This document shows, piece after piece, positions 11,624 to 41,787 of a DNA stretch of 64,000 nt. The position numbers were made by a program, and so were the translations under genes. Source of the stretch: Escherichia coli 042 (GTDB taxonomy: Bacteria > Pseudomonadota > Gammaproteobacteria > Enterobacterales > Enterobacteriaceae); the NCBI RefSeq assembly GCF_000027125.1, contig NC_017626.1. One strand, written 5' to 3'. The notes beneath the pieces are model-generated. The model saw only the letters and a program-made list of their open reading frames with translations. It ran no database searches and was not told where the DNA came from. Position 1 is the stretch's first letter; each line of letters begins with the position of its first letter.

Positions 11624-12976
11624 ATGACTAAACACTATGATTACATCGCCATCGGCGGCGGCAGCGGCGGTATCGCCTCCATCAACCGCGCGGCTATGTA
11701 CGGCCAGAAATGCGCGCTGATTGAAGCCAAAGAGCTGGGCGGCACCTGCGTGAACGTCGGCTGCGTACCGAAGAAAGTGATGTGGCACGCGGCGCAAATC
11801 CGTGAAGCGATCCACATGTACGGTCCGGATTATGGTTTCGATACCACTATAAATAAATTCAACTGGGAAACGTTGATCGCCAGCCGTACCGCCTATATCG
11901 ACCGTATTCATACTTCCTATGAAAACGTGCTCGGTAAAAATAACGTTGATGTAATCAAAGGCTTTGCCCGCTTCGTTGATGCCAAAACGCTGGAGGTAAA
12001 CGGCGAAACCATCACGGCCGATCATATTCTGATCGCCACCGGCGGTCGTCCGAGCCACCCGGATATTCCGGGCGTGGAATACGGTATTGATTCTGATGGC
12101 TTCTTCGCCCTTCCTGCTTTGCCAGAGCGCGTGGCGGTTGTTGGCGCGGGTTACATCGCCGTTGAGCTGGCGGGCGTGATTAACGGCCTCGGCGCGAAAA
12201 CGCATCTGTTTGTGCGTAAACATGCGCCGCTGCGCAGCTTCGACCCGATGATCTCTGAAACGCTGGTCGAAGTGATGAACGCCGAAGGCCCGCAGCTGCA
12301 CACCAACGCCATCCCGAAAGCGGTGGTGAAAAATGCTGATGGCAGCCTGACGCTGGAGCTGGAAGATGGTCGCAGTGAAACGGTAGATTGCCTGATTTGG
12401 GCGATTGGTCGCGAGCCTGCCAATGACAACATCAACCTGGAAGCCGCTGGTGTAAAAACCAACGAAAAAGGCTATATCGTCGTCGATAAATATCAAAACA
12501 CCAACGTTGAAGGTATTTACGCGGTGGGCGATAACACGGGTGCAGTGGAACTGACACCGGTGGCAGTTGCAGCGGGTCGCCGTCTCTCTGAACGCCTGTT
12601 TAATAACAAGCCTGATGAGCATCTGGATTACAGCAACATTCCGACCGTGGTCTTCAGCCATCCGCCGATTGGTACTGTTGGTTTAACGGAACCGCAGGCG
12701 CGCGAGCAGTACGGCGACGATCAGGTGAAAGTGTATAAATCCTCTTTCACCGCGATGTATACCGCCGTCACCACTCACCGCCAGCCGTGCCGCATGAAAC
12801 TGGTATGCGTTGGACCGGAAGAGAAGATTGTCGGAATTCACGGCATTGGTTTTGGTATGGATGAAATGTTGCAGGGCTTCGCGGTGGCGCTGAAGATGGG
12901 GGCGACCAAAAAAGACTTCGACAATACCGTCGCCATTCACCCGACGGCGGCAGAAGAGTTCGTGACCATGCGTTAA
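11624..12976 (+). CDS. gor: Glutathione reductase (450 aa)
   Basis: N-terminal FAD-binding GGGSGG; redox-active disulfide [13 protein letters not shown]; C-terminal dimerisation domain. Confidence 0.9.
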
Positions 12977-12982
12977 ATGTTA

Positions 12983-13013
12983 AAGGGCAAAGAGTGGTGT
13001 GCTCTTTGCCCTT
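12983..13013 (+). terminator. Hairpin after gor (candidate terminator)
   Basis: Inverted repeat aagggcaaagag / ctctttgccctt directly after the gor stop; no strong T-run. Confidence 0.45.
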
Positions 13014-13029
13014 AGTTACGTTTCCGCTA

Positions 13030-13113
13030 TCAGTTCAGAAGCTGAAGCAGAAAGCGGATCAGTTCCAGCAGCGCAATTAACGCCCCAAGAACGATGATTG
13101 CTTTATCAATCAC
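13030..13113 (-). CDS. dinQ: DinQ type I toxin peptide (27 aa, GTG start)
   Basis: Reverse-strand translation gives VIDKAIIVLGALIALLELIRFLLQLLN*, matching DinQ from memory; GGAG 8 nt upstream; missed by the ORF track because of its size. Confidence 0.75.
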   Translation of the reverse strand: MIDKAIIVLGALIALLELIRFLLQLLN

Positions 13114-13306
13114 CCGTTTTCTCCATGCGATGGAGTGAGAATGCATCCGCTTACTCATCCACTGCCTGTCACGGCGCATGTCTCATTGTTAGATAAGAAC
13201 TCTCTCACTCCGGCCAGAGCATCAGTTAACGGCACCACCCGTACTTCTGACCAGGACTTTGAAAGCGTTTATGCGCATTACCAGAGTGAAAATGCCTCAG
13301 AGCTAA

Positions 13307-13322
13307 CTGGATAATCATACAG
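13307..13322. promoter_or_regulatory. Candidate LexA box (CTGG-N8-ACAG) in the dinQ upstream region
   Basis: ctggataatcatacag resembles the CTGT-N8-ACAG SOS box; dinQ is damage-inducible. Confidence 0.45.
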
Positions 13323-13384
13323 TACATGCAGGTTATAAAACCAGCACGTCCTTGCAATAGTTTCAGTATGGTATTAGCATTGAT

Positions 13385-13470
13385 GCGTTAGATGATGGCA
13401 TTCTCACTCCAGCCAGAGCCACCAACTCAGGGCTGAAGAGTAAAAAAACCGACGCAAAGTCGGTTTTTTT
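13385..13470 (+). ncRNA. agrA: agrA-like small RNA (approximate ends)
   Basis: First full copy of the repeat ctctcactccagccagagccaccaactcagggctg ending in the terminator aaaaaaaccgacgcaaagtcggttttttt; the 5' end is a guess. Confidence 0.45.
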
Positions 13471-13616
13471 ACATCCGGATTCGGACAAGGCTTAATATGA
13501 CGATGACCCAGTGAAAGTATATAAATCGTCACTGCGATATATACCGAAGTGCTCCCTCCGCCAGCTGAAGAAACCGCTAATTCTTGCAATGTTAGCCACT
13601 GGCTAATAGTATTGAA

Positions 13617-13701
13617 CCGTTAGATAAGAGCTCTCTCACTCCAGCCAGAGCCACCAACTCAGGGCTGGAAAGTAAAAAACCGACGCAAAGTCGGTTTTTT
13701 T
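13617..13701 (+). ncRNA. agrB: agrB-like antisense small RNA, antitoxin for dinQ (approximate ends)
   Basis: Second copy of the same repeat and terminator (13674-13701); complementary to the partial repeat at 13190-13250 that lies inside the dinQ transcript. Confidence 0.45.
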
Positions 13702-13853
13702 ACGTCCTGATTCAGACCTCCTTTCAAATGAATACCCAACGCTTAATTCACACCTATTACCTTCCTCTGCACATACACATTCGTTAAACCATATATGTTT
13801 TTGACTTATCCGCTTCGAAGAGAGACACTACCTGCAACAATCAGGAGCGCAAT

Positions 13854-14207
13854 ATGTCATTTCTCTTACCCATCCAACTGTTCAAAATTCTTGCTGATGA
13901 GACCCGTCTGGGCATCGTTTTACTGCTAAGCGAGCTGGGAGAGTTATGTGTCTGCGATCTCTGTACTGCCCTCGATCAGTCGCAGCCCAAGATATCCCGC
14001 CACCTGGCGCTTCTTCGTGAAAGCGGGCTATTGCTGGATCGCAAGCAGGGTAAGTGGGTTCATTACCGCTTATCGCCGCATATTCCAGCATGGGCAGCGA
14101 AAATTATTGAGCAAACAAGATTAAGCCAACTGGACGACGTGCAGGCTATCGCCCGTAAGCTGGCCGCAGCCAACTGCTCTGCAGACGGTAAAGCAAGCTG
14201 CAGTTAA
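13854..14207 (+). CDS. arsR: Arsenical resistance operon repressor ArsR (117 aa)
   Basis: ArsR/SmtB HTH with the As(III)-binding ELCVCDLC motif. Confidence 0.9.
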   Translation: MSFLLPIQLFKILADETRLGIVLLLSELGELCVCDLCTALDQSQPKISRHLALLRESGLLLDRKQGKWVHYRLSPHIPAWAAKIIEQTRLSQLDDVQAIARKLAAANCSADGKASCS

Positions 14208-14254
14208 AAAATTTGCCTGGATATATATGATTTTCCGAATGTGAGGTGTCGAAG

Positions 14255-14617
14255 ATGAAGACGTTAACGGTGTTTGATCCGGCGATGTGTTGCAGTACCG
14301 GCGTCTGTGGTTCTGATGTTGATCAGGTGCTGGTCGATTTTTCCGCAGATGTGCAATGGCTGAAAAGCCGCGGTGTTCAGGTCGAACGTTACAATCTCGC
14401 GCAGCAACCGATGAGTTTCGTGCAAAACGAAAAAGCGAAAGCGTTTCTTGAGGCTTCCGGGGCGGAAGGATTGCCCTTGATCTTACTGGGAGGCGAAACC
14501 GTGATGGCGGGCCGTTATCCGAAACGCGCCGAGCTAGCCCGCTGGTTTGGGATCCCGCTGGAGAAGGTGGGGCTGGCACCAACACACTGCTGTGGCGGAA
14601 AAACCGACTGTTGTTGA
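14255..14617 (+). CDS. arsD: Arsenic metallochaperone / secondary regulator ArsD (120 aa)
   Basis: MKTLTVFDPAMCCSTGVCG with Cys12-Cys13-Cys18 and a C-terminal cysteine-rich tail; ATG at 14255 preceded by gaggtg. Confidence 0.85.
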   Translation: MKTLTVFDPAMCCSTGVCGSDVDQVLVDFSADVQWLKSRGVQVERYNLAQQPMSFVQNEKAKAFLEASGAEGLPLILLGGETVMAGRYPKRAELARWFGIPLEKVGLAPTHCCGGKTDCC

Positions 14618-14634
14618 GCCGGTCAGGGGGACAT

Positions 14635-16386
14635 ATGAAATTCTTACAGAATATCCCGCCTTATCTGTTTTTTACCGGTAAGGGAGGTGTAGGTAAAACG
14701 TCAATTTCCTGCGCAACTGCTATCCATCTGGCGGAACAGGGAAAACGGGTTCTGCTTGTCAGCACCGACCCCGCGTCGAATGTCGGTCAGGTATTTAATC
14801 AAACTATTGGTAACGCTATTACTCCTGTGACAGCGGTTCCCGATTTGTCAGCGCTGGAAATTGACCCTCAGCAAGCCGCTGAACAGTATCGGGCCAGAAT
14901 CGTTGACCCTATCAAAGGACTTCTCCCTGAGGAGGTTGTAAATAGTATACGCGAACAACTTTCGGGAGCATGTACGACAGAGATCGCGGCGTTCGATGAG
15001 TTCACCGGTTTACTGACCGATGCCTCTCTGCTGGCCCGCTTTGATCACATCATTTTTGATACCGCGCCAACGGGCCATACCATACGACTTCTGCAGCTCC
15101 CCGGTGCCTGGAGCAGTTTTATTGAAAGTAATCCCGATGGTGCCTCCTGTCTTGGCCCGATGGCTGGGCTGGAAAAACAGCGTGAGCAGTACGCTGATGC
15201 GGTAGAAGCATTATCCGATCCTGAGCGTACCCGCCTGGTGCTGGTTGCACGCCTGCAAAAATCAACATTGCAGGAAGTCGCTCGCACTCATGAAGAACTG
15301 GCAGCGATTGGTCTTAAAAATCAGTATCTGGTGATCAACGGCGTATTGCCTGAGTCCGGGCAGCAAAATGACCCACTAGCAATGGCAATAGTTCAGCGTG
15401 AGCAGGAAGCCCTGGTAAATTTACCCGCCGGTTTATCGACCATTCCAGCAGATACCCTCTTTCTTCAACCGGTGAACATGGTTGGCGTGCCTGCATTAAA
15501 AGGTCTTTTTAATACCCGTTTCGAGCCTGCCCCACTCTCTGGCCAGGTGCGCCAGCAATTCTCTGAAAACATGTCATTCTCTGAGTTAGTGAATGATATT
15601 GCCCGCAGTGAACACGGTCTGATCATGCTGATGGGAAAAGGCGGCGTGGGGAAAACCACAATGGCCGCAGCTATCGCCGTCAGGCTGGCAGATATGGGAT
15701 TCGATGTGCATCTTACAACCTCCGATCCTGCTGCCCACATTAACACTACCCTAAACGGCACACTTAACAACCTACAGGTCAGCAGGATCAATCCGCAGGA
15801 AGAGACCGAGCGCTATCGCCAGCATGTCCTTGAGACAAAGGGAAAAGATCTCGATGAAGCGGGGAAACGACTGCTGGAAGAGGATTTACGCTCTCCCTGC
15901 ACCGAAGAGATTGCTGTATTTCAGGCGTTCTCGCGCGTGATCCGTGAGGCGGGTAAACGTTTTGTGGTGATGGATACCGCACCAACCGGTCACACGCTGT
16001 TACTGCTGGATGCCACCGGGGCTTATCACCGTGAAATTGCGAAAAAAATGGGCGAAAAAGGTCACTTTACTACGCCAATGATGCAACTTCAGGATCCGCA
16101 ACGCACCAAAGTGCTGCTGGTTACGCTGCCTGAAACCACACCCGTACTGGAAGCGGCTAATTTGCAGGCCGATCTTAAACGCGCAGGGATTCATCCCTGG
16201 GGCTGGATAATCAATAACTGCCTTTCTATTGCGGAAACTCGTTCGTCGCTACTGTGTCAGCGAGCAACGCAGGAACGACCACAAATTGAGGCGGTGATGG
16301 CCCGACATGCTAAGCGTGTAGCGCTGGTCCCTCTATTCGCACAAGAACCTACGGGTATCGAAAAACTCAGAAAGCTGGCAAGTTAA
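14635..16386 (+). CDS. arsA: Arsenite-stimulated ATPase ArsA (583 aa)
   Basis: Two homologous halves each with a P-loop (GKGGVGKTS, GKGGVGKTT) and DTAPTGHT signature. Confidence 0.9.
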   Translation: MKFLQNIPPYLFFTGKGGVGKTSISCATAIHLAEQGKRVLLVSTDPASNVGQVFNQTIGNAITPVTAVPDLSALEIDPQQAAEQYRARIVDPIKGLLPEEVVNSIREQLSGACTTEIAAFDEFTGLLTDASLLARFDHIIFDTAPTGHTIRLLQLPGAWSSFIESNPDGASCLGPMAGLEKQREQYADAVEALSDPERTRLVLVARLQKSTLQEVARTHEELAAIGLKNQYLVINGVLPESGQQNDPLAMAIVQREQEALVNLPAGLSTIPADTLFLQPVNMVGVPALKGLFNTRFEPAPLSGQVRQQFSENMSFSELVNDIARSEHGLIMLMGKGGVGKTTMAAAIAVRLADMGFDVHLTTSDPAAHINTTLNGTLNNLQVSRINPQEETERYRQHVLETKGKDLDEAGKRLLEEDLRSPCTEEIAVFQAFSRVIREAGKRFVVMDTAPTGHTLLLLDATGAYHREIAKKMGEKGHFTTPMMQLQDPQRTKVLLVTLPETTPVLEAANLQADLKRAGIHPWGWIINNCLSIAETRSSLLCQRATQERPQIEAVMARHAKRVALVPLFAQEPTGIEKLRKLAS

Positions 16387-16428
16387 TTTTTTATACAGGG
16401 CGACCATGTCGCCCTGTCAGGAGGGTGT

Positions 16429-17718
16429 ATGTTACTGGCAGGCGCTATTTTTGTCCTGACCATCGTATTGGTTATCTGGCAGCCGAAAGGTTTAGGCATC
16501 GGCTGGAGTGCAACGCTCGGCGCGGTACTGGCGTTGCTTACGGGCGTGGTTCATCCGGGTGATATTCCGGTGGTGTGGAATATCGTCTGGAACGCGACGG
16601 CGGCGTTTATTGCCGTCATTATCATCAGCCTGCTGCTGGATGAGTCCGGCTTTTTTGAATGGGCGGCGCTGCACGTCTCACGCTGGGGCAATGGACGCGG
16701 TCGCTTGCTGTTCACCTGGATTGTCCTGCTCGGTGCCGCCGTTGCAGCTCTGTTTGCCAATGATGGCGCGGCGCTGATTTTAACGCCAATTGTCATCGCC
16801 ATGCTGCTGGCTTTAGGATTCAGTAAAGGCACTACGCTTGCGTTTGTGATGGCGGCCGGGTTCATTGCCGATACCGCCAGCCTGCCGCTTATTGTCTCCA
16901 ACCTGGTGAATATCGTTTCCGCAGATTTCTTTGGCCTCGGCTTTCGCGAATACGCATCGGTGATGGTGCCGGTGGATATCGCCGCAATTGTTGCCACGCT
17001 GGTGATGTTGCATCTTTATTTCCGCAAAGATATTCCGCAGAACTACGACATGGCGCTGCTGAAATCGCCCGCAGAAGCGATTAAAGATCCTGCTACGTTC
17101 AAAACTGGCTGGTTTGTTTTACTGTTTCTGCTGGTGGGATTTTTCGTCCTGGAACCGCTCGGCATTCCGGTAAGCGCCATTGCGGCAGTGGGCGCGCTGA
17201 TATTATTTGCCGTCGCTAAACGCGGTCATGCAATTAATACGGGTAAAGTCCTGCGCGGTGCGCCCTGGCAGATTGTCATCTTCTCGCTCGGCATGTATCT
17301 GGTGGTTTATGGCCTGCGCAATGCCGGACTAACGGAATATCTTTCTGGCGTACTCAACGTGCTGGCGGAAAACGGCCTGTGGGCCGCGACGCTCGGCACC
17401 GGATTCCTCACCGCCTTCCTCTCTTCTATTATGAACAATATGCCGACGGTACTGGTTGGCGCGTTGTCCATTGATGGCAGCACGGCATCTGGCGTTATCA
17501 AAGAAGCGATGGTTTATGCCAACGTGATTGGCTGCGATTTGGGACCGAAAATTACCCCAATTGGTAGCCTGGCTACGCTACTCTGGCTGCACGTACTTTC
17601 GCAGAAGAATATGACTATCAGCTGGGGATATTACTTCCGTACAGGAATTATCATGACCCTGCCGGTGCTTTTTGTGACGCTGGCTGCGCTGGCGCTACGC
17701 CTCTCTTTCACTTTGTAA
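16429..17718 (+). CDS. arsB: Arsenite efflux pump ArsB (429 aa)
   Basis: 12-TM membrane protein of ArsB length, immediately after arsA. Confidence 0.9.
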
Positions 17719-17730
17719 TGAGATATTGAT

Positions 17731-18156
17731 ATGAGCAACATTACCATTTATCACAACCCGGCCTGCGGTACGTCGCGTAATACGCTGGAGATGATCCGCA
17801 ACAGCGGTACAGAACCGACCATTATCTATTATCTGGAAACACCGCCAACGCGCGATGAGCTGGTCAAACTCATTGCCGATATGGGGATTTCCGTACGCGC
17901 GCTGTTGCGTAAAAACGTCGAGCCGTATGAGGAACTGGGCCTTGCAGAAGATAAATTTACTGACGATCGGCTAATCGACTTTATGCTTCAGCACCCGATT
18001 CTGATTAATCGCCCGATTGTGGTGACGCCGCTGGGAACTCGCCTGTGCCGCCCTTCAGAAGTGGTGCTGGAAATTCTGCCAGATGCGCAACAACGCGCGT
18101 TCACCAAGGAAGATGGCGAGAAAGTGGTTGATGAAGCGGGTAAACGCCTGAAATAA
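17731..18156 (+). CDS. arsC: Arsenate reductase ArsC (glutaredoxin-coupled, 141 aa)
   Basis: Catalytic Cys12 context HNPACGTSRN; length 141 aa. Confidence 0.9.
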   Translation: MSNITIYHNPACGTSRNTLEMIRNSGTEPTIIYYLETPPTRDELVKLIADMGISVRALLRKNVEPYEELGLAEDKFTDDRLIDFMLQHPILINRPIVVTPLGTRLCRPSEVVLEILPDAQQRAFTKEDGEKVVDEAGKRLK

Positions 18157-24130: not shown

Positions 24131-26113
24131 TTACCATTGATAACTCACGAAAATTTTTCCATTACGACCATCCTGTGGGATGCCTTGTGGCGACCAGTAC
24201 TCTTTGTCGAAAGCGTTACCCAACACCAAAGTAGTGGTCATACCTTTGAGCGCCTGCTGCCCTTGATAACTGACGTAGAAATCATTCACGCCATAGCCTG
24301 GTTGTTTGCTGTAACTGCTGCTGATATGTGTTGAGCGATCGGCAAACGTACCAACCCACCCAACAGAGAAGCCACTGTGAGCGATCGGAATATTCAGGGT
24401 GCTGGTAACGGTATCCGGGTTAATACTGGAGATATATTCGCCGGTATCGGTGTCTTTGCCGCGGGTACGGTTATAGGCCACATCAAGGCTAAACAGATCA
24501 GTGGTATATTTCGTCATCACATCCCAACCCCAGATTTTGGCGTTCGGGACGTTATACGACATAGTTGTCGCCGCCGCGAAATCGACGGTCGTGGAGATGT
24601 AATCCTTCGCTTTGGTATCAAAGTAGCTGGCTTTAAATTCCAGAGCATCATTGGACAACATCAGATCATCAAAACGCAGCCCAAAACCGTACTCCTGAGT
24701 TTCGTTAGTTTCCGGACGTAAGTTCGGGTTTGGCACCCAATAGTTGGTATAGAAGCGACCAATCGAGAAGTGCTTAGAATCGTTATACATTTCGCCCATC
24801 GTCGGGGCGCGGAATGCCTGGGCATATGAGCCAAATAACATCAGCCAGTTAGCCGGGTTGATAGTCATCCCCGCGCGAGATGACCATTTGTCGGCATCAA
24901 CATCTTTGTAGCCGTCGCTGCTACCGCGATAACTGTCATAGCGGGTTCCGCCAAGCAGGGTAATCGGCAGATCGCGTAAGGTGATCTCATCCTGTAGCCA
25001 GCCGGAGCTAAAATCGATTTTTGCTTGCGGGAAGCCCGTCGTCGCGCCGCCCGGATGTTGTTCCTGACGATAATACTCACCGCCATATGTCAGTAAGTGA
25101 GAAGCGAAACTGTCGGCAAATAGAGTGGAACGGTTCTCCAGTTTGGCTCCTTTTGTTATCTGTTCACGATACTCGCCGGAACTCCCCGTGTTTTGCGCAT
25201 TAATACGGACTTCCGACCAGTAAATTTTTGCATCTGCATTTAACCAGTCGTTGCCCTGCGGGGCGAGTTTATAAGAAAGCTGCGCATCGCGTTGAATTGT
25301 TGAACGATCAACCATCGGGTTGCTGCTATCAGAAGCTTCAACGGTCTGCGGATTTTTTGGTTCACGCGCGTCGTTGTTGTAGTAACGCACTAAACCGCTC
25401 AGAGACTGGGCTGAATCAATTTGCCAGGTCCCTTTCGCCAGCATGTTATTAATGGACTCGTCATTCGGCGCGGTTTCACCATTGCTCTGGCGTAAATCAC
25501 CCCGATCGCGACTGGACCAGGCCACAATACCATCCAGATTTTCAGTTCGCCCAAACGCGCTCGCGCCTAATCCCAGGCTATGGTCCCCCGTGCCGCCAGT
25601 ACCAAAGACACGAAAACCACTACTTTGTCCTTCCTGCAATAAATCTTTTGCATCGACCGTATCGTAGGAGATCACCCCACCCAGCGCGCCACTGCCATAC
25701 AGTAATGCTGAAGGTCCGCGAACAATCTCAACACGCTTGATCAGCGCCGGATCAAGAAAAGTACCATTCAGGTGTCCGGTATCCGTTCCCTGGCGAACAC
25801 CATCGACAAGAACCAGCACGCCGCGATGATCATAGCCACGCATATTTACATCCTGACCGTTGGTTCGTCCGGTACCATCAAGAGTAATTCCAGGAACATG
25901 ACGCAGCAGATCGGTGGCTGAAGTAGCCGTTTGATTTTCAGGAGCGGAAGTGTCGATGACGCTGACCATCATAGGCGCTTCGAAGGAACTACGGGCATTC
26001 CCCGTTGCCGTAACGGTCATGGTTTCAGTAGCAAAAGCAAACGTTGGCAAGGTGGCAGAAACAGCCAAAGCCAACAAACTCAAACGCAACGAGGTAAATT
26101 GCGGACGTGACAT
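24131..26113 (-). CDS. chuA: TonB-dependent outer membrane haem/haemoglobin receptor ChuA (660 aa)
   Basis: Signal peptide, TonB-box region, plug and beta-barrel, C-terminal aromatic residue. Confidence 0.9.
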   Translation of the reverse strand: MSRPQFTSLRLSLLALAVSATLPTFAFATETMTVTATGNARSSFEAPMMVSVIDTSAPENQTATSATDLLRHVPGITLDGTGRTNGQDVNMRGYDHRGVLVLVDGVRQGTDTGHLNGTFLDPALIKRVEIVRGPSALLYGSGALGGVISYDTVDAKDLLQEGQSSGFRVFGTGGTGDHSLGLGASAFGRTENLDGIVAWSSRDRGDLRQSNGETAPNDESINNMLAKGTWQIDSAQSLSGLVRYYNNDAREPKNPQTVEASDSSNPMVDRSTIQRDAQLSYKLAPQGNDWLNADAKIYWSEVRINAQNTGSSGEYREQITKGAKLENRSTLFADSFASHLLTYGGEYYRQEQHPGGATTGFPQAKIDFSSGWLQDEITLRDLPITLLGGTRYDSYRGSSDGYKDVDADKWSSRAGMTINPANWLMLFGSYAQAFRAPTMGEMYNDSKHFSIGRFYTNYWVPNPNLRPETNETQEYGFGLRFDDLMLSNDALEFKASYFDTKAKDYISTTVDFAAATTMSYNVPNAKIWGWDVMTKYTTDLFSLDVAYNRTRGKDTDTGEYISSINPDTVTSTLNIPIAHSGFSVGWVGTFADRSTHISSSYSKQPGYGVNDFYVSYQGQQALKGMTTTLVLGNAFDKEYWSPQGIPQDGRNGKIFVSYQW

Positions 26114-26118
26114 AGCGA

Positions 26119-26134
26119 TTCTCCATGAGGAAAA
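26119..26134 (-). promoter_or_regulatory. FourU-type RNA thermometer hairpin masking the chuA Shine-Dalgarno
   Basis: In chuA orientation 5'-UUUUCC-UCAU-GGAGAA-3' forms a 6-bp stem over the SD, 5 nt before the ATG; such a thermometer has been described for shuA/chuA. Confidence 0.5.
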
Positions 26135-26402
26135 TAAAAAATGCTGGCTGCCTGGGTTAATACCGGGGTGGCTGGCGAAAAATAAATTTATTTAAAATTC
26201 AGAGCGATAATATTCGCCGGGTGAGTTTACAGGCGTTTATATCCCATGAAATTGCCTGGTATCTCGGCAAATACGCAAAAGCACGCCCTCTTTGTCAGGC
26301 AAAACGATATGCCCCATCAGGAGTGAAGAGCGCTGTGCGTTACCCCTTGTAAATGATATGGCTTTGTTATCCATATGGCCGTATTTTGTTAAATGCAAAC
26401 GT

Positions 26403-35694: not shown

Positions 35695-36032
35695 TCAGGA
35701 CATAAGCAACTGAAATTGATGGCTGGCATGACGAGGGATGCAGATGCTGATTTCATTACCCCCGGTGATTACTAAAGGAGAGGCGAAAACGACTTTATTC
35801 CCCTGGTATGTGTATCCACCAGTAGAACCCTTCGTTGCCCGAATGCTGGCAGGAACTGTTGGCAGAACGGCAACATTTTTTTTGTCGTTGACCTCACCAT
35901 GTCGATCACTATGCCTGTATCCCACCTTACTGGCTGACAACCCCACTATGCCGCTGGTCTGTAAATCCCTCATATCTCTCCTCGCGCGCAATTTAAAGAA
36001 CCGTTATTTCTCAAGAATTTTCAGGGACTAAA

Positions 36033-41419: not shown

Positions 41420-41665
41420 GACTATCCCTTATATTTCATTACTGCGATTATTTCAATTTCAGTATACTAATGAAATGATGCCAGACTGTTTCTTAGCGCA
41501 AAAACTGCCAGATTTGGTAGGACCAAAATTTATCCACAAAGTAGTTTTGCATAACAGTTAATTGATAATAAGTAAATGCAACACGAATATATTTTCGCAC
41601 AGCGTATAGCTTATGTTTATAAAAAAATGGCTGATCTTATTTCCAGTAAAAGTTATATTTAACTT

Positions 41666-41771
41666 ACTGAGAGCACAAAGTTTCCCGTGCCAACAGGGAG
41701 TGTTATAACGGTTTATTAGTCTGGAGACGGCAGACTATCCTCTTCCCGGTCCCCTATGCCGGGTTTTTTTT
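41666..41771 (+). ncRNA. gadY: GadY small RNA, antisense to the gadX 3' UTR
   Basis: Plus-strand segment starting actgagagcacaaag and ending in the terminator ccggtcccctatgccggg plus T8, between gadW and gadX. Confidence 0.65.
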
Positions 41772-41787
41772 ATGTCTGAGTAAAACT

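Follow-up and report, generated by a model that had tools for sequence, protein, structure and literature searches.

The gor-arsR intergenic region of Escherichia coli 042: a dinQ-agrAB type I toxin-antitoxin locus and the variation of its repeats across genomes

Genes and features between gor and arsR

In the window analysed here, i.e. a whole stretch of 64,000 nucleotides (nt) of Escherichia coli 042 (RefSeq assembly GCF_000027125.1, contig NC_017626.1), the gene dinQ, encoding a toxin of 27 amino acids (aa), lies between gor and arsR together with agrA and agrB, two paralogous genes for small RNAs (sRNAs) transcribed in the opposite direction (Table 1). Positions 12977-13853 correspond to the gor-arsR intergenic region of E. 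coli and almost certainly carry an intact dinQ-agrAB locus, i.e. a chromosomal type I toxin-antitoxin system, whose allele is of the K-12 type. An earlier sequence-only reading had proposed a dinQ/agrB locus made of an SOS-inducible toxin and an antisense RNA, and this proposal is borne out by the concordance of the K-12 annotations, the DinQ peptide and the AgrB matches; all the elements it listed exist where it placed them, to within a few bases.

Alignment with the gor-arsR region of K-12 MG1655, the comparison suggested in that reading, yields 99% column identity over 880 nt, and the K-12 annotations of dinQ (b4613), agrA (b4712) and agrB (b4713) coincide with the features predicted in the window. 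As determined by Megablast, the region is present in 5,422 of the 5,426 complete E. coli genomes, eight of which are 100% identical over it, including strain A10 from a wood-wren source, where dinQ is annotated under the match by the Prokaryotic Genome Annotation Pipeline (PGAP). A chance origin is excluded because of the 33-mer found in three copies, the two Rfam matches of 108 and 94 bits and the 99% identity to K-12 over 880 nt. The repeats were also considered as generic repetitive extragenic palindromic (REP) or terminator repeats, a candidate rejected in view of the full-length match to a specific Rfam family at the sites of annotated K-12 genes. The sequence traits of the DinQ/AgrB family were found, namely the toxin family itself, a nearby AgrB-family RNA on the opposite strand, a complementarity of ~31-34 nt, the gor-arsR site and the four leader elements. 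Nothing read in the sequence contradicts the dinQ-agrAB explanation, and no second copy of dinQ or agr was found elsewhere in the 64-kb window.

The dinQ/agrAB locus is already known in detail and its intact copy here is ordinary. Compared to the K-12 MG1655 locus (Weel-Sneve 2013, PMC3567139; Kristiansen 2016, PMC5066626), the chromosomal site, gene order and orientation are the same, and the DinQ peptide, the LexA operator and the target segment of the dinQ leader are all identical. The differences consist of a G instead of an A at 13630 in agrB, U28 instead of C28 in the leader, about seven positions in agrA, including one additional A in the terminator run, and a single synonymous change in dinQ; beside the locus, the ars operon is arsRDABC rather than arsRBC, with divergence from ~14100. 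For the window, the meaning is one of annotation only: the toxin gene of 27 aa and both sRNA genes are intact and are missed by callers of open reading frames (ORFs).

Table 1. Coordinates of the features at and beside the dinQ-agrAB locus in the window.
Feature	Position	Strand	Remarks
gor (glutathione reductase) coding sequence (CDS), left flank	11624..12976	+	450-aa ORF; annotated gorA in A10, gor in K-12
Hairpin between convergent gor and dinQ, common terminator, marking the 3' end of the dinQ messenger RNA (mRNA)	12983..13013	.	Inverted repeat and terminator-like match
Full-length (+1) dinQ mRNA, ~325 nt	12983..13307	-	+1 mapped by published numbering
dinQ CDS, 27-aa single-transmembrane type I toxin	13030..13113	-	GTG start 13113-13111; peptide as in K-12 b4613
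Leader element 4	13121-13126	-	Contains the Shine-Dalgarno sequence GGAG, 13121-13124
Leader element 3	13130-13141	-	Predicted to form the Shine-Dalgarno-sequestering hairpin 3:4 with element 4
Third agr-repeat copy, dinQ 5' untranslated region (UTR), AgrB target (published G88-A119 = 13220..13189)	13188..13220	-	94% vs. agrB copy, 79% vs. agrA copy
Leader element 2	13202-13214	-	Within the third agr-repeat copy of the dinQ leader
+44 processing site, giving translatable dinQ-b mRNA	13264	-	Putative, placed by numbering; sequence identical to K-12
Leader element 1 (U16-28)	13280..13292	-	Predicted to pair with element 2, locking the +1 transcript; U28 here vs. C28 in K-12
Putative dinQ -10, TATGAT	13319..13314	-	Overlapped by the LexA operator
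LexA operator AACTGGATAATCATACAGTA	13308-13327	.	CTG-N10-CAG core; identical to K-12; abuts +1 (13307)
Putative agrA promoter: TTGCAA 13352-13357, 17-nt spacer, TAGCAT 13375-13380	13352..13380	+	Read from sequence
agrA sRNA, agrB paralogue, poor dinQ match here	13388..13472	+	Rfam RF02891, 94.1 bits, full length; K-12 b4712 position
Decayed gor 3' fragment between agrA and agrB	13496..13575	+	Homologous to gor 12710-12795
Putative agrB promoter: TTGCAA 13584-13589, 17-nt spacer, TAGTAT 13607-13612	13584..13612	+	Read from sequence; aligned with K-12
agrB sRNA, cognate antisense antitoxin (predicted)	13620..13703	+	Rfam RF02891, 108.1 bits, full-length match 1-84; K-12 b4713 position
arsR, right flank	13854..14207	+	117-aa ORF; 86.6% aa identity to K-12 ArsR, diverging from near 14100

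Toxin gene, leader switch and antisense RNAs

On the minus strand, 13030-13113 translates as V/M-IDKAIIVLGALIALLELIRFLLQLLN-stop, which is identical to K-12 dinQ b4613 and exactly the DinQ peptide that had been recognised from the letters as a 27-aa ORF. The peptide matches the NCBIfam equivalog NF041472 (toxin_DinQ) at 54 bits for a cut-off of 30, NCBIfam having been used since Pfam holds no DinQ family model. Upstream, the box already suspected of being a LexA site is the published operator, whose heterology index (HI) is 4.83 (PMC3567139). Of the 16 other promoter-bearing loci that were scanned, 15 have the same operator and one, in strain E69, has a single substitution. By this operator, dinQ of the window would be a member of the SOS (LexA) regulon, the binding of LexA and the induction by damage being known from K-12. 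For a second weak LexA operator described in the literature (HI 13.82), no confident placement was found in the window and no coordinates were assigned.

Regarding the transcript, its length was reported to be ~330 nt with a terminator a few nt past the gor stop codon (PMC3567139), and the published numbering situates the AgrB target at G88-A119, the Shine-Dalgarno sequence at G184-G187, and elements 4, 3 and 1 at A182-G187, U167-U178 and U16-28, respectively (PMC5066626). The +1 of dinQ was placed at 13307 (minus strand) because G88 is fixed at 13220 and GGAG at 13124-13121. All four leader elements are identical to those of K-12 except for C28U (A vs. G on the plus strand, alignment column 304), the sole leader difference, which keeps the pairing as a G·U with G94. 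In the minimum free energy (MFE) fold of the +1 RNA, the published 1:2 duplex and the 3:4 Shine-Dalgarno hairpin are both reproduced, with 182-187 paired to 173-178 and an ensemble probability of an unpaired Shine-Dalgarno sequence of at most 0.07; in the MFE structure of the +44 RNA, G185-G187 are unpaired. The predicted folding of the two forms thus lends partial support to the published switch. As a separate observation, a perfect 14-nt inverted repeat relates 13131-13144 to 13398-13411, GCAUUCUCACUCCA being common to the agrA RNA and the element-3 region of the dinQ mRNA.

The repeat search delineated a 33-nt family in three direct copies, namely 13188-13220, 13387-13419 (79%) and 13619-13651 (94%), as well as two longer two-copy repeats, i.e. 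13372-13447 vs. 13604-13679 (86% over 76 nt), covering the sRNA bodies, and 13443-13486 vs. 13674-13717 (93% over 44 nt), covering the terminators. The two near-identical repeats noticed on the strand opposite to dinQ are indeed the annotated agrA and agrB genes, which are 90.6% identical over the RNA lengths and 81% when the promoters are counted in and the unit is compared as a whole, and both terminate in the hairpin AAAAAACCGACGCAAAGTCGGTTTTTTT, in keeping with the shared terminator first described. The third copy, which the sequence-only reading had seen within the dinQ leader, does lie there but is to be understood as the antisense target and not as a third sRNA; a sub-threshold match to the Rfam AgrB model (RF02891, gathering score 40) over 13189-13274 (22.7 bits, E = 0.33) suggests that this copy may be a longer agr copy in a decayed state.

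Each agr gene is preceded by a putative promoter, consistent with the consensus-like -10 and -35 elements reported for these genes (PMC3567139). A generic promoter and terminator scan missed these promoters, which have 8/12 consensus matches and are sub-threshold, as well as the agr terminators, finding only the gor/dinQ hairpin and one irrelevant promoter-like site. In the predicted folds of both sRNAs (z = -5.55 for agrA and -4.95 for agrB), the 5' tail is left open and is followed by a short hairpin inside the RNA and by a rho-independent terminator. The first 32-33 nt of agrB are complementary to the dinQ leader: its 33-mer forms 31 Watson-Crick pairs, one G·U and one A·C mismatch out of 33 (-59.6 kcal/mol), and its first 45 nt reach -66.6 kcal/mol with the dinQ transcript as compared with -29.8 +/- 3.4 for shuffles, which is the complementarity that the duplex prediction proposed beforehand was expected to reveal. 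The agrA 33-mer forms 26 Watson-Crick pairs, four G·U and three mismatches (-46.6 kcal/mol), and agrA is predicted to be non-cognate in the window strain, as in K-12.

The mechanism that can be proposed takes its steps from published work on K-12, in which LexA control, +44 processing, GTG initiation, membrane localisation, depolarisation, AgrB-dependent closure of the Shine-Dalgarno sequence and RNase III cleavage were established (PMC3567139, PMC5066626); for the window strain, the sequence prerequisites are what was verified. With LexA bound to the operator overlapping its promoter, dinQ would be transcribed only in the SOS response. The full-length (+1) mRNA would be inert for translation, element 1 pairing with element 2 and elements 3 and 4 sequestering the Shine-Dalgarno sequence, until loss of the first 43 nt generates the +44 form, where element 2 would be free to pair with element 3 and thereby release the Shine-Dalgarno sequence. 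The 27-aa DinQ would then be translated from the GTG and insert into the inner membrane, overproduced DinQ depolarising the membrane and lowering ATP. AgrB, a constitutive sRNA viewed as a duplicated and oppositely transcribed copy of the leader segment, would pair with nt 88-119 of the +44 mRNA, causing the Shine-Dalgarno hairpin to close again and provoking cleavage by RNase III, and AgrA would be a paralogue whose 5' patch is mismatched to the leader of this strain. On the basis of sequence identity, we infer that these experimental steps carry over from K-12, the strain from which the toxicity of DinQ and its neutralisation by the sRNA are known. Some of the computed results call for caution: the ensemble probability of an unpaired Shine-Dalgarno sequence in the +44 form is only ~0.25, the published 2:3 duplex is absent from the +44 MFE structure, and the A to G change at 13630 relative to K-12, which preserves pairing, replaces one Watson-Crick pair of agrB with a G·U.

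Could agrA also be a functional regulator of dinQ here, e.g. through an effect on the full-length transcript, or else by serving as a backup antitoxin? The gene gives a full-length Rfam AgrB match (94 bits), has both its putative promoter and its terminator intact and folds stably (z = -5.55), and its predicted duplex with the leader still amounts to the -46.6 kcal/mol mentioned above; besides, both sRNAs repress the primary, inactive transcript (PMC3567139), and the first agr copy is the better match in E69, H3 and O157:H7, so that this copy is not generally dead. Such a role is nonetheless unlikely, as the three mismatches and four G·U pairs cluster in the 5' patch and as K-12 agrA, with a comparable pairing (-44.1 kcal/mol), leaves the Shine-Dalgarno structure unchanged, does not inhibit +44 translation in vitro and does not counteract toxicity (PMC3567139, PMC5066626). 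Far less probable still is a locus reduced to an inactive relic with a toxin unexpressed or non-toxic. In its favour, 819 of the 5,426 complete genomes lack the dinQ promoter and leader with dinQ still annotated, so that annotation alone is no proof of function, and DinQ went undetected in earlier proteomic screens (PMC3567139); against it, the operator, -10, elements 1-4, Shine-Dalgarno sequence, GTG, ORF, terminator and both agr genes with their promoters are all intact, the sole leader difference preserves pairing, and identity is 99% to K-12, where function was demonstrated (PMC3567139). As for the protein product, the 27-aa dinQ forms the 3' portion of a longer ORF of 49 aa, delimited mechanically from an ATG (13030-13179) and originally predicted as the gene (PMC3567139), but that this longer ORF should be the one translated is hardly credible, since the GGAG at 13121-13124 stands 6 nt upstream of the internal GTG at 13113, the NCBIfam model spans only residues 24-45 of the 49-aa form, the 27-aa form is the one in the RefSeq annotation and mutagenesis was reported to show that translation starts at the internal GTG (PMC3567139).

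The repeats across genomes

Within the 33-nt repeat, positions 8-15 constitute a hypervariable 8-nt patch (leader 13195-13202, agrA 13394-13401, agrB 13626-13633), which was compared over loci L002, L034, L123-L128, L131-L133, L003, L021 and L088. Among the complete E. coli genomes, the commonest leader allele is AATGGCAT (1918 genomes, e.g. H3 and VTB97432v), followed by AAGAACTC (1681, including the window and K-12), GACGACTA (418, including E69 and 536) and AATGGTAT (308, including O157:H7); GTGGGCAT, as in PCN033, was counted in ~119 genomes from the high-identity bands only, the query used for it being too long and sharing a 28-mer with the AATGGCAT allele. The loci of Escherichia albertii, Escherichia whittamii and the divergent 'E. 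coli' SCPM also carry GACGACTA, outside the count of 418. A contig scan with CTCACTCCNGCCAGAGC returned at least 120 loci, most of them attributable to chance (with 16 specified bases, ~140 would be expected when both strands of 298 Gb are scanned); only its 16 Enterobacterales loci were used and the taxonomic distribution drawn from it is incomplete. A leader with the AATGGCAT patch would extend the 'ON' duplex 2:3 to ~13 bp, beyond its length in K-12-type strains.

A patch matching that of the leader is borne by one agr copy in 12 E. coli examples as well as in E. albertii, E. whittamii and SCPM. This copy is agrB in the window, K-12, EC2202095, PCN033 (33/33) and OkiPb01695, and the first copy (agrA) in E69, H3 and O157:H7; in O111:NM, the single agr copy within the fetched sequence matches the leader patch. 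The first copy matches in four of the five inspected genomes with the AATGGCAT or GACGACTA allele, the fifth being HH97, where the correspondence is imperfect and the single agr shows three mismatches to the leader. Beyond E. coli, the dinQ-like modules of Leminorella, Citrobacter amalonaticus (two) and Hafnia have quite distinct patches, each found both in the leader of the toxin and in the agr-like copy next to it. Over 33 pairs in 13 modules (E. coli, Leminorella, Citrobacter and Hafnia), 96.5% of the cells are paired vs. 86.5% when partners are shuffled (0/500 shuffles reach the observed value), 11 of the 33 intermolecular pairs have changed on both sides, and sliding the partner by 1-3 columns makes pairing fall to 34-39%.

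These covariation data support the pairing register and the 5' patch as specificity determinant. On the other side of the balance, the count is biased upward by the choice of the better-pairing agr copy in two-copy genomes, and the covariation may stem from gene conversion or recent duplication of direct repeats without selection on pairing.

The same repeats border losses of the system. In DA61218 and Nissle 1917, a single hybrid repeat remains: the 199 nt that separate the leader copy from the agr copy are missing, and with them the promoters of both dinQ and agr, the LexA box and nt 1-87 of the leader. The junction, located at 470-530 of locus L130 (DA61218) and identical in Nissle 1917 (H103), is found in the 819 complete E. 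coli genomes already mentioned, with dinQ still annotated there by PGAP, and the deletion is read from sequence as recombination between the dinQ-leader repeat and the agr repeat. Common lineages, including the probiotic Nissle 1917, consequently hold a promoter-less dinQ ORF that is still annotated as dinQ. Strains 536 and VTB97432v have one agr and lack a 232-bp unit, a loss consistent with unequal recombination between agrA and agrB. In O169:H41 F6326-C1 (L129, 1-557), an InsQ/TnpB gene of the IS200/605 family takes the place of gor-dinQ and directly precedes the LexA box and the agr genes, the antitoxin genes being retained without the toxin ORF.

Between agrA and agrB lies a decayed gor 3' fragment (Table 1), the Smith-Waterman score of which is 45 for shuffles at 18.9 +/- 2.0 (maximum 28), and which still reads VKVYKSS in one frame. 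In E. coli E69, E. whittamii (87% identical to gor) and SCPM, such a remnant likewise comes just past the first agr, a position conserved in all the Escherichia species examined; in E. albertii, the part of gor that aligned significantly was limited to its last 30 nt, stop codon included (positions in the compared loci: L003 4093-4122, L021 1412-1493, L088 12855-12909). On the simplest reading, the dinQ-agr module may have entered with a duplication of the gor 3' end, e.g. by single-crossover integration of DNA bearing a gor 3' segment, the displaced copy having then decayed; agrB would have arisen later, by duplication of the agr unit into the gor remnant in an ancestor of E. coli and E. whittamii.

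Taken jointly, these observations allow a reading that has about an even chance of being right, namely that the repeats swap the 8-nt patch, probably through gene conversion, so that the cognate antitoxin switches between agr paralogues from one lineage to another, that the same repeats drive the loss of the system, and that the gor 3' remnant marks the entry of the module. If so, the status of agrA as a degenerate, non-functional copy would hold for the K-12 lineage only, and the data do suggest that the experiments on K-12 agrA are not general across E. coli. In the searchable literature, no prior description of allele switching, repeat-mediated deletion or the gor remnant was found, the search being incomplete and this absence weak evidence. 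For the field of type I toxin-antitoxin systems, the wider comparison has a modest interest, in providing natural covariation support for the AgrB-dinQ pairing.

Related systems and neighbouring features

Among known systems, tisB/istR-1 of E. coli resembles dinQ in several respects: the toxin is a small inner-membrane peptide under LexA control, the primary transcript is inert until it has been processed at its 5' end (+42 vs. +44 for dinQ), and an antisense RNA, encoded divergently and acting in trans, prevents translation and leads to RNase III cleavage (PMC5066626). It differs from dinQ by its unrelated sequences, by a single antisense gene instead of two paralogues, and by the use of a ribosome standby site, where dinQ relies on a four-element switch opening the Shine-Dalgarno sequence. 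In shoB/ohsC and zorO/orzO, the antisense RNA is likewise encoded beside the toxin gene without overlap and pairs with a long structured 5' UTR, but these systems are regulated differently from the LexA-controlled dinQ and their sequences are unrelated.

Closer to dinQ are the dql (dinQ-like) genes of Enterobacteriaceae (Kristiansen 2016), with predicted antisense RNAs in T1TAdb (PMC8594479), which have homologous 5' UTR elements and a homologous peptide; the dql loci of Leminorella, Citrobacter amalonaticus and Hafnia have a neighbouring agr-like repeat with a 5' patch matching their own toxin leader. Unlike the window dinQ, dql genes occur in other genomic contexts, some of them plasmid-borne, and encode divergent peptides, and the CTG-N10-CAG box was not found in most of the dql slices examined. 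The gor-arsR site being the trait that sets true dinQ apart from dql, the locus of the window is a true dinQ and not a dql. In Citrobacter amalonaticus (L109, 7000-8350), two tandem dinQ-like modules come with three agr-like copies, each with its own matching patch, and on another contig (L108, 3300-3760), an agr-like gene has a CTG-N10-CAG box with no toxin ORF detected and may be an orphan antitoxin.

Downstream of the locus, the ars operon (13854-18156) comprises five genes, arsRDABC, with arsD at ~14255-14617, arsA extending to 16386, arsB at 16429-17718 and arsC at 17731-18156, K-12 having arsRBC. The sharp drop of similarity to K-12 inside arsR, near 14100, suggests a possible recombination breakpoint. 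Elsewhere in the window, Rfam matches at the gathering score comprise the ES205 sRNA at 35812-35883 (plus strand, 105 bits), GadY at 41663-41776 (plus strand, 150 bits) and the shuA/chuA 5' UTR thermoregulator at 26111-26142 (minus strand, 60 bits), this chuA element being consistent with a non-K-12 phylogroup.

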